Shown one piece after another: positions 5,188 to 6,763 of a DNA stretch of 64,000 bases. The stretch comes from an uncultured virus (IMG/VR IMGVR_UViG_3300038755_000021). Taxonomy: Duplodnaviria > Heunggongvirae > Uroviricota > Caudoviricetes. The notes beneath the pieces were generated by a model. The model was not told where the DNA came from. It worked only from the letters and a program-made list of their open reading frames with translations, and searched no databases. The first letter of the stretch is position 1. The number at the start of each line of letters is the position of its first letter. Position numbers and translations under genes: made by a program. Location of the stretch: the IMG/VR virus record IMGVR_UViG_3300038755_000021, positions 1 to 64,000 of that record, one strand, 5' to 3'.

Positions 5188-5269
5188 ATTAAATAATTTA
5201 AATTGTTAAACTTTATAGAGTGTATATTAATGTATAAGATTAATTTCACCTATTTAATAAATTGTAAAT

Positions 5270-5292
5270 TAACACTCCTTATATATAGTATA
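5270..5292 (-). repeat. TAACACTCCTTATATATAGTATA motif (identical copy at 6344-6366; related copies at 6255-6270 and inverted at 5370-5387)
   Basis: Direct sequence identity. Confidence 0.85.
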
Positions 5293-5541
5293 TCATTTTT
5301 AGTAAGCAGTAATCAGATATCTTCAAGTTAACTAATTAACTGTATCCACAAAACCTACTAAAACATTACCTATATAAAGGAGTGTTAATTAACAATCCTA
5401 AATATATGAAAACAAAATAAATGTTCAAAATAACTTTGTTTCTTATTACCAACCCCCTTATTACAATTGTAATATATGTAAAACTGCATAGAGTACAAAG
5501 TGAAAAACTCCCCCTCAGTTTATTTACAGGTAACATTATTA

Positions 5542-5711
5542 CCCTCTGCACTCAGTTTTAATGACAGACTCAATAACTTAGAGTTTCTTGGACTTATTTA
5601 TTTCAAAAAGTATCCTACTGTCTACTTTAGGTGTTATAACCTAATATTACTATGAATTTCTCATAGTTCAATTACAACTGCTCATCCTTGGGAAATGAGA
5701 ATGGTGCATTA
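5542..5711 (-). ncRNA. Twister-ribozyme-like RNA, copy 1, with a large branched P5 insertion
   Basis: UAA-UGCA-CC-AUU-CUCAU-U-UCCC-AA-GG-AUGAG-[stem]-AG-UGCA-GA-GGG. Confidence 0.55.
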
Positions 5712-5738
5712 CTTTAGCTATAGTAATGTTATTTATTT

Positions 5739-5797
5739 AAAAAAATGGTATAGCACTTACCAGCAAATTACTGTTGGTTTTATAGTACTATACCATT
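5739..5797 (-). terminator. Long hairpin / intrinsic terminator
   Basis: AATGGTATAG...CTATACCATT stem with a minus-strand U-tract. Confidence 0.6.
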
Positions 5798-5850
5798 ATA
5801 TTAATGGTCTGAATAACAATAATATATATATATATGTTATTCAGAGATTT

Positions 5851-5906
5851 TCTAAGCAACCGTAACCTACTTAGATTTACTTAACTTGGTGATCACGGCT
5901 ATCACC
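5851..5906 (-). ncRNA. Two hairpins with complementary loops
   Basis: GGUGAU/AUCACC and UCUAAG/CUUAGA stems; loops CCGUG and UACGG can pair. Confidence 0.4.
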
Positions 5907-5980
5907 TAACGCTAGAAGCCTTGAACCTAGGTACCAGGTATGCAAGCTGACTTGTGGCTTACAATTTCTTTTTTTATAAC

Positions 5981-6057
5981 TAAATAACTGTACCAACATG
6001 CATACTCAACCAATATTCCCATGGAATTATTGTATACACATTGATACAGATTATTTA
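5981..6057 (-). ncRNA. Repeated hairpin with CAAUAA...GAG internal motif (other copies 6427-6463, 6470-6538)
   Basis: CUGUAUCA/UGGUACAG stem conserved; inner stems differ in sequence but still pair. Confidence 0.55.
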
Positions 6058-6060
6058 GAT

Positions 6061-6182
6061 TAATTGCAATAGTCTTCTTGAGAGAATAAATAGTAAGTTC
6101 TCACCTTACCTAAATGTCAGGATTAGATATTATCACCTGATTCTGGCTTTCATTTATACCAGCATTTAAACTATTACAATTA
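6061..6182 (-). ncRNA. Multi-stem RNA with a three-way junction and an H-type pseudoknot
   Basis: 13-bp closing stem; UAAAUG/CAUUUA, CUGG/CCAG, UCAGG/CCUGA; GGUAAG/CUUACU crossing GAGAA/UUCUC. Confidence 0.55.
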
Positions 6183-6184
6183 TT

Positions 6185-6255
6185 TCACTCTGCACTCAAT
6201 TGTAATACATGTGGTTACAATTGCTTACCCTTGTGAAGTAAGTTATGGTGCATTA
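6185..6255 (-). ncRNA. Twister-ribozyme-like RNA, copy 2 (compact)
   Basis: UAA-UGCA-CC-AUAA-CUUAC-U-UCAC-AA-GG-GUAAG-CAAUUGUAA..UUACAAUUG-AG-UGCA-GA-GUGA. Confidence 0.6.
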
Positions 6256-6276
6256 CACTCCTTATATATATAATCA

Positions 6277-6316
6277 AAAAAGATCTGGATCAACAATAAA
6301 TGCCAATCCAAACCTT
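6277..6316 (-). terminator. Intrinsic terminator (homologous to 6549-6587)
   Basis: GGUUUGGAUUGGCA...UGUUGAUCCAGAUC-UUUUU. Confidence 0.65.
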
Positions 6317-6548
6317 AACTAATTCATTATCTAACTTATTATGTAACACTCCTTATATATAGTATACATTTATCTTTTATAGACTAAATGTCAGGTTAAA
6401 CCTGACAAAATGACTATAAACAGTAAATCTGCATACTCTATATTAGGCTTTATTGATACAGATACCCAGTAAACTGTACCAATACACACACTCATCTAGA
6501 ATACTCTAGCTTATTGTGCATGTAATGATACAGATTAAATGTAATTAT

Positions 6549-6587
6549 AAAAAAAGTCTGGACCAACAAAGTTGGCTAGCCCAACCT
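6549..6587 (-). terminator. Intrinsic terminator
   Basis: GGUUGGGCUAGC...GUUGGUCCAGACU-UUUUUU. Confidence 0.6.
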
Positions 6588-6607
6588 CATCAATCCAGGC
6601 TTATGTT

Positions 6608-6763
6608 TCAAATATTGTAGGCTACTACTGCTAGTAGCCATATAGCAACCAGAAATCCCATTACCCATTTTATCATGGGTGTTTCTTGGAATTCCAATTT
6701 AACTATCTCTCTTGTGCCAAATAGGCACAAGGGCATGATGAAATATAAAGTAAATGCTATCAT
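6608..6763 (-). CDS. Small two-TM protein, paralog of 3770..3919 (not in track)
   Basis: MIAFTLYFIMPLCLFGTREIVKLEFQETPMIKWVMGFLVAIWLLAVVAYNI. Confidence 0.7.
   Translation of the reverse strand: MIAFTLYFIMPLCLFGTREIVKLEFQETPMIKWVMGFLVAIWLLAVVAYNI

Follow-up and report, generated by a model that had tools for sequence, protein, structure and literature searches.

Among the described self-cleaving RNAs, the closest to the elements considered here is the type-P1 version of the twister ribozyme, represented in Rfam by the consensus ccuuUAAcgCcGCC[P3]cCGGUCCCAAGCCCGggUAAAgGcgGAGGGaagg (RF03160), the full consensus line of which reads ccuu UAA cgCc GC C[P3] cCG G UCCCAAGC C CGg UAAA gGcg GA GGG aagg; this line, together with reviews, supplied the canonical twister consensus to which we compare. 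Twister-P1 (RF03160; PMC5408937, PMC6154101) is characterized by UAA at the cut site, four Watson–Crick P2 pairs flanked by an A and by the G of a GA dinucleotide, a P4 loop of the form U-CCC-AA-G, and a GGG strand after the GA that forms a covarying 3-bp pseudoknot, T1, with this loop. P1 is optional in this type, being described as dispensable in known twisters (PMC5408937), and, like the family presented below, the type occurs in phage-related DNA close to other copies. Passages of PMC8501958 report that P1-relaxed twister variants cleave both in vitro and in vivo; the T-variants of Schistosoma mansoni described there resemble the family presented below in their weak or absent P1 and in heading a functional unit on its 5′ side, and they are active, but as far as those passages go they keep the canonical core, departing from it only in P1 and in the number of A residues at the cut site, and they are eukaryotic and retrotransposon-linked. 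Twister-sister (RF02681), by its description in PMC5408937, shows a vague likeness in P4-loop letters and helix layout, but has its cut on the other strand of the internal loop and has no Watson–Crick pseudoknot; in our family, in contrast, T1 covaries as a Watson–Crick pseudoknot and the UAA lies on the 5′ strand, and no Rfam match to RF02681 was found at the site.

We identified two copies of a twister-type element on the minus strand of the window, by which we mean the whole 64-kb stretch of DNA analysed here, the first part of an IMG/VR virus record that is linear, 72 kb long and, by CheckV, 59% complete (GC content of the window ~30%). Both copies lie within a gene-poor stretch of ~1.4 kb, roughly 5190–6600, amid an array of small minus-strand ORFs, and they share a common plan of UAA, P2, P4 with the loop UUCNCAAGG, P5, P2′, GA and T1′. 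Their parts, and a hairpin upstream of each, are as follows:

6186..6255, minus strand: copy 1, the whole twister-type element, 70 nt, read directly from the sequence; 76.9 bits, E 2.3e-21 with our covariance model R1.
6254..6255, minus strand: predicted scissile bond of copy 1, between U6255 and A6254, assigned from its place in the UAA (U6255, A6254, A6253), as in the Rfam twister-P1 consensus.
6249..6252, minus strand: 5′ strand of P2 of copy 1, UGCA, which pairs with 6191–6194.
6247..6248, minus strand: CC of copy 1, candidate 5′ strand of T2, with GG 6229–6230 as would-be partners; AUAA stands between this CC and P4.
6224..6242, minus strand: P4 hairpin of copy 1, CUUAC 6242–6238, loop UUCACAAGG 6237–6229 (divided as UU-CAC-AA-GG), GUAAG 6228–6224.
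6233..6235, minus strand: 5′ strand of T1 of copy 1, CAC, with GUG 6186–6188 as partner.
6197..6223, minus strand: P5 hairpin of copy 1, 9 bp with a 9-nt loop (6206–6214), CAAUUGUAA 6223–6215 paired with UUACAAUUG 6205–6197.
6191..6195, minus strand: P2′ of copy 1, UGCA 6191–6194, with G6195, for which C6248 is a possible partner in a fifth P2 pair; A6196 and G6195 form the joiner before P2′.
6186..6190, minus strand: GA 6190–6189 and T1′ GUG 6188–6186 of copy 1, aligning with the GAGGG of the twister-P1 consensus.
5542..5711, minus strand: copy 2 in full, 170 nt, with the cut predicted between U5711 and A5710; 70.1 bits, E 3.2e-19 with R1.
5681..5708, minus strand: 5′ core of copy 2, P2 UGCA 5708–5705, CC 5704–5703, AUU, then the P4 hairpin, CUCAU 5699–5695 with AUGAG 5685–5681 around the loop UUCCCAAGG 5694–5686 (UU-CCC-AA-GG).
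5553..5680, minus strand: P5 of copy 2, 5680–5671 with 5562–5553, one G·A mismatch, around a 108-nt insert (5670–5563); its base is CAGUUGUAAU/AUUAAAACUG.
5542..5552, minus strand: 3′ core of copy 2, A5552, G5551, P2′ UGCA 5550–5547, GA 5546–5545, T1′ GGG 5544–5542.
6280..6316, minus strand: terminator-like hairpin with a U run; the predicted cut site of copy 1 lies ~25 nt downstream.
5737..5804, minus strand: long hairpin (inverted repeat I15) with a U run after it; the predicted cut site of copy 2 lies ~25 nt downstream.

Direct reading of the minus strand bears out an earlier sequence-only reading of this DNA, according to which both copies follow the twister order with compensatory differences in P4 (CUUAC/GUAAG versus CUCAU/AUGAG), at the base of P5 and in T1 (CAC/GUG versus CCC/GGG), all of which are present; of the span 6185..6255 that it gave, the element stands, but its 3′ end is the last letter of T1′ at 6186 rather than 6185. 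That reading had further pointed to a search with the Rfam twister models, and, as a counter-indication, to a better match with some known non-catalytic motif. The search yielded no twister match at the site, twister-P1 included, and no family of Rfam 15, catalytic or otherwise, reached its gathering threshold anywhere in the window (that of RF03160 being 67.2 bits). Likewise, no twister match was recovered at E ≤ 10 in the 701 nt and 111 nt around the site, nor at E ≤ 5 in the loci of 10 relatives, and RF03160 run alone over five whole records found nothing at the ribozyme sites. Low-scoring Rfam matches near the site (mir-568, trpB, BtsR1 and others) fall on AT-rich hairpins far below the gathering scores and were taken as chance.

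To gather relatives, we scanned viral contigs with a pattern in which the letters of P2 and T2 were fixed, which returned at least 119 loci; among the matches listed, a script kept 34 full instances, including both window copies, wherein P4 is paired at no fewer than four of its five positions and the downstream strand carries UGCAGA and then the perfect complement of the T1 triplet. Four more candidates passed the P4 filter without a 3′ half: two run into contig ends, one is chance-like and one has the GA changed to AA. The covariance model R1, built from 24 of the 34 full instances, ranks the two copies first in the 64-kb window, with the third-ranked match at 11.1 bits, and between 4800 and 7400, with filters off, it detected no further copy and nothing else above 9 bits; given that their scores lie so far above the next match, the two copies are more than a chance resemblance. 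R1 also matches 33 of 33 other viral records, 11 of which have two matches 200–1100 nt apart. A second scan, from which again only the matches listed were used, fixed the loop as UU..AAGG together with the P5 base and left P2, T1 and the 5′ part free. For the final alignment (A4), R1 was run over 67 loci picked by a regular expression from all retrieved sequence, giving 78 matches at E ≤ 1e-5 from uncultured phage contigs and the window's own record; four degenerate or incomplete rows were left in the counts.

In GTDB, sampled at one genome per species, 41 loci match the pattern and 10 of these pass the model with 11 matches, all on MAG contigs and none in an isolate genome, and blastn of a typical member against 50,697 GenBank phage records (INPHARED) gave no match. 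Full-text literature searches, judged from their listings, turned up no published description of the variant.

The alignment extends the covariation first seen between two copies to 78 instances, in which P2, P4, T1 and P5 all covary. Two-sided changes are observed at 4/4 pairs of P2, 5/5 of P4, 3/3 of T1 and 8/9 of P5. Pairing is found in 100% of the cells of P2, 99.7% of those of P4 and 99.6% of those of T1, and in 91.7% overall versus 30.7–42.3% when the partners are slid by 1–3 columns, percentages that are partly by construction, since the first filter demanded P4 and T1 pairing and the alignment was fitted to the nested helices of the model (T1 lies outside it), whereas the variety of pair types is not. 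This variety comprises UGCA/UGCA, UGUA/UACA (7 rows) and UGCG/CGCA (2 rows) in P2, and changes in T1 from CG to AU in 9 and 6 rows and to UA in one; none of 500 shuffles equalled the observed values. The unpaired core letters are nearly invariant, though their conservation too is partly by construction, with some core letters fixed by the gathering patterns and the model: both A of the UAA (A14 and A15) are present in 78/78 rows, G271 and A272 of the GA each in 75 of 76, A41 and A42 of the loop in 78/78, and U36 and U37 of the loop in 77/77. Single-sequence folding of the two copies gave no signal (z −0.53 and −1.52), which is expected because the RNA is pseudoknotted and AT-rich.

The family shares with twister-P1 its element order, with UAA at the predicted cut site, the four Watson–Crick P2 pairs and their flanking letters, the run of letters in the P4 loop and the GA with its T1 strand in the same places, the covarying T1 and an optional P1. 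At least four consecutive P1 pairs can form at the junction in 31 of 77 rows and at most one in 32 of 77; with shuffled partners, the number of rows with four or more averages 5.7 and reaches a maximum of 13 in 2000 shuffles. In the two window copies there are 0 and 1 such junction pairs. Taken together, we have here a large phage-borne RNA family with the twister fold and the twister active-site letters, which is strongly supported; the earlier suggestion of a variant twister missed by existing models is upheld by the covariation of the 78 instances, by their nearly invariant active-site letters and by the lack of a match to any Rfam family.

Certain outliers deserve mention in their own right. 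Changes at the presumed catalytic GA are seen in L144 (to AA) and L272 (to GC), and the 5′ part is degenerate in L139:1235-1378 and L148:2215-2421; these four look like decayed copies. Beside true copies, two weak model matches, L148:2018-2121 (E 0.57) and L139:1032-1181 (E 0.66), share a different 5′ part consisting of UAA, a 4-nt stem and CCAUUCUCACGUGGA, and may belong to another, related class of motif within these arrays.

Most members lie between genes, and the ORFs beside them share their strand. By a mechanical ORF call, 24 of 25 loci have a downstream ORF; the nearest one is co-oriented in 23 of these, and in 8 loci it begins 21–73 nt past the ribozyme; the nearest ORFs of 28 loci share no flanking gene family. 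Together with the presence of G·U pairs (for example, the first P1 pair is U·G in 23 rows), the co-oriented downstream ORFs indicate an RNA on the strand of the element. In several relatives, a GC-rich hairpin and a U run stand directly 5′ of the predicted cut site, the U run being the 5′ strand of P1. Several or tandem copies per record are typical of processing elements. One locus (L089:289-643) has two members head to tail, with a single base between the first, whose T1′ triplet is one letter off, and the UAA of the second; were both to cut, this tandem would release a unit-length RNA.

Based on the above, we consider it probable that both copies are self-cleaving twister variants that cut intergenic phage transcripts. 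The minus-strand RNA would fold into P2, P4 and P5, and the P4 loop (UUCNCAAGG) would reach back to the GA-NNN strand to form T1 and with it the twister active site, built around the UAA. Self-cutting would then take place between U and A, at 6255/6254 in copy 1 and 5711/5710 in copy 2, leaving a 2′,3′-cyclic phosphate on the upstream RNA and a 5′-OH on the downstream RNA, which would start with the folded ribozyme. Such a cut is predicted to split read-through or polycistronic transcripts at the intergenic borders between modules, a short way past the terminator-like hairpins. Whereas the helices, T1, the conserved core letters, the spread of the family and its co-oriented placement between genes are shown directly, we infer catalysis, the cut site and this biological role.

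Beyond these likenesses, four positions that are almost invariant in canonical twister differ in the family. Strand order is that of type P1, but P3, found in 78% of annotated twisters (PMC6154101), is absent, whereas P5, found in 1% of them (PMC6154101), is always present, with a base conserved in sequence and inserts of 3–177 nt. The pair closing P4, an essentially invariant G–C in twister (PMC5408937), is a C–G here and is variable (CG 59, AU 10, UA 5, UG 2, GC 1); the P4 loop has one U more than in twister-P1, and the joiner before P2′ is AG rather than UAAA. At T2, the family has CC/GG in place of the GC/GC of twister-P1. The sequence-only reading had named as deviations this CC/GG, the extra loop U and the want of a P1, and all three are present in the window copies; what does not hold up as well is CC/GG as a T2 helix, which lacks two-sided changes. 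Although pairing is possible in 99.4% of its cells, the changes are one-sided only (24:44, CG 67 and UG 9; 25:43, CG 77 and UG 1), and the sequences are, as such, compatible with T2.

The outer C of this candidate T2 instead covaries with the base just 5′ of P2′ (columns 24:265): in the 76 rows with letters at both, there are 67 C–G and 9 U–A combinations and none unpaired, with the C replaced by U in exactly those 9 rows that have G changed to A just 5′ of P2′. The U–A rows include three P2 sequences and three T1 triplets, and stand for few independent events. This covariation suggests that P2 probably has five pairs in the family, in contrast to the exactly four of twister (PMC5408937). A five-pair P2 matters because equivalent changes inactivate the Osa-1-4 twister: the A40C variant, in which P2 is longer by one pair, has a relative activity of 0.09 (PMC5113685), flipping the T2 pair (G13C+C31G) leaves ~0.06, and flipping the closing pair (G23C+C32G) ~0.08, the last two values being taken from the PDF-parsed supplementary matrix of PMC5113685 by our own column count. 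A rearranged and co-adapted core can be envisaged, in which P2 would have five pairs instead of four and T2 would be down to one C–G pair, C6247–G6230, with the extra loop U perhaps pairing with the displaced G; the P2 and T2 stack would then stay at six layers, as in twister.

Against self-cleavage count the want of a match to the Rfam twister models, the changes at near-invariant positions, the loss of activity that such changes cause in Osa-1-4, a T2 without covariation and the missing P1 of both window copies. The main rival to self-cleavage is that these are non-catalytic RNAs of the twister fold, which have lost cleavage or never had it, and which serve as structured intergenic elements, for example, as platforms for protein binding, as stable 5′ or 3′ structures or as scaffolds that carry the variable P5 domains. 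We hold this to be possible but rather unlikely. It would sit well with a T2 that shows no covariation and has to compete with a fifth P2 pair, with the inactivation of the Osa-1-4 twister by like changes (PMC5113685), with a P5 base whose conservation in sequence hints at a sequence-specific partner, and with the structured and diverse nature of the P5 inserts. Yet the nearly invariant unpaired letters are the very ones that are catalytic in twister, namely the A past the cut, the GA and the AA of the loop, for which a mere scaffold has no evident use, and the tandem and paired copies fit processing.

The base of P5 is kept in sequence in addition to pairing, with C–G in 77 of 77 rows and A–U in 76 of 77, and the 77 inserts that it carries fall into 69 similarity clusters. 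In two of eight similar insert pairs compared by eye, the inserts are separated by compensatory changes. Among near-identical strains, contigs of two other DNA runs have 72 or 238 different letters where copy 1 has its 9-nt P5 loop, a contig from another run has 42 different letters in place of 114 of the copy 2 insert, and one contig is without 6255–6345, a segment between two copies of a repeated motif. Such swaps of the P5 interior between near-identical strains place the ribozyme halves at the borders of exchangeable modules. A tentative extension, which we deem rather unlikely in this full form, is that the family is a distinct twister subclass in which the fifth P2 pair has replaced a T2 pair, while the displaced G is held by the additional U of the loop, with the sequence-conserved P5 stem docking hypervariable, structured inserts that gate or tune cleavage in a modular or allosteric fashion, and the conserved halves acting as linkers for the exchange of non-coding modules.

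The same swaps could be seen as the mark of a DNA-level element, the halves and the palindromic P5 base of which would be recombination or insertion sites that shuffle phage modules, with the RNA fold being incidental: near-identical strains differ exactly within P5, by the 72-, 238- and 42-letter replacements, the 6255–6345 segment is missing from one contig, and the inserts are split over so many clusters. We regard this as improbable; the G·U pairs, and compensation in both P4 and the long-range T1, are the mark of a selected RNA, the conserved UAA and GA are left unexplained, and conserved ribozyme halves can bring about module exchange as a side effect. A short leader ORF, the 12-codon frame opened in copy 1 by the AUG (6253–6251) of UA-AUG-CAC with AAGGAG 4 nt upstream, is very improbable and was rejected, since a Shine–Dalgarno sequence is absent before copy 2 and most relatives, and since the differences compensate one another within RNA helices and would cause non-conservative replacements in the peptide.

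If the RNAs of this family do cleave, twister would tolerate, in a naturally co-adapted form, changes at positions that are nearly invariant elsewhere and that are individually lethal in Osa-1-4, and the known twister sequence space would widen. It would also mean that the standard catalogues miss a phage-borne branch of twister and that a new model would be required wherever ribozymes are sought by homology. Being abundant in uncultured phages and endowed with very diverse P5 domains, the family offers a natural experiment in the grafting of peripheral domains onto a small ribozyme, and it provides a handle on the open question of the role of self-cleaving ribozymes in phage transcripts.

With regard to the setting of the two copies, long and near-identical pieces of 5300–6700 are present in contigs of wastewater and activated-sludge DNA runs from three studies, which points to an uncultured phage of that type of habitat. 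An apparent joint from 6366 to 5300 in the comparison of contigs is an artefact of a 35-nt repeat (5258–5292 and 6332–6366). Searches of 14 neighbouring ORFs against PHROGs gave weak or generic matches only, such as a terminase-like or DnaC-like P-loop stretch in a 423-aa ORF, and no tRNA or tmRNA was found in the window. Genes are oriented on the minus strand below ~10.6 kb and on the plus strand above it, and the GC skew changes sign near 12 kb; the position at ~10.6 kb is the divergent transcription point of the phage.

Terminator-like hairpins are enriched between 4800 and 7400, with 11 sites versus 1.1 expected from shuffles, which suggests that the region is divided into short transcription modules; minus-strand examples include 6824–6789, 6598–6558 and 6316–6280. 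A scan for sigma-70 promoters in the same interval showed no excess (16 sites versus 15.4 expected). Three long AT-rich hairpins are also present on the minus strand (5974–6060, 6353–6443 and 6460–6546), two of which have a 23-nt block in common (5986–6008 and 6472–6494); their sub-threshold mir-568 matches are weak and were taken as chance.

Just past copy 2, on the minus strand (5366–5537), an AUG 5 nt beyond its GAGGG opens a 56-codon hydrophobic frame, and ribosome binding for it could be a second task of the T1′ strand; the relatives inspected show no comparable frame downstream. One metatranscriptome contig spans the non-coding 6009–6176, just downstream of copy 1 and outside both elements, with 3 differing letters; it may hint at a module abundant as RNA, with DNA carry-over being a further possibility.

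Finally, we noted a motif, TATAAGGAGTGT, contained within the longer TATATATAAGGAGTGTTA, of which there are three exact minus-strand copies (5272–5283, 6255–6266 and 6346–6357), all in the gene-poor stretch, and a variant on the plus strand near 5372–5390. Allowing up to one mismatch, it has 5 matches in the window versus 0.64 expected. One of the copies terminates at the U of the predicted cut site of copy 1, and a related strain is without the segment between two of the copies; the motif may act as a phage promoter or mark the boundary of a module.
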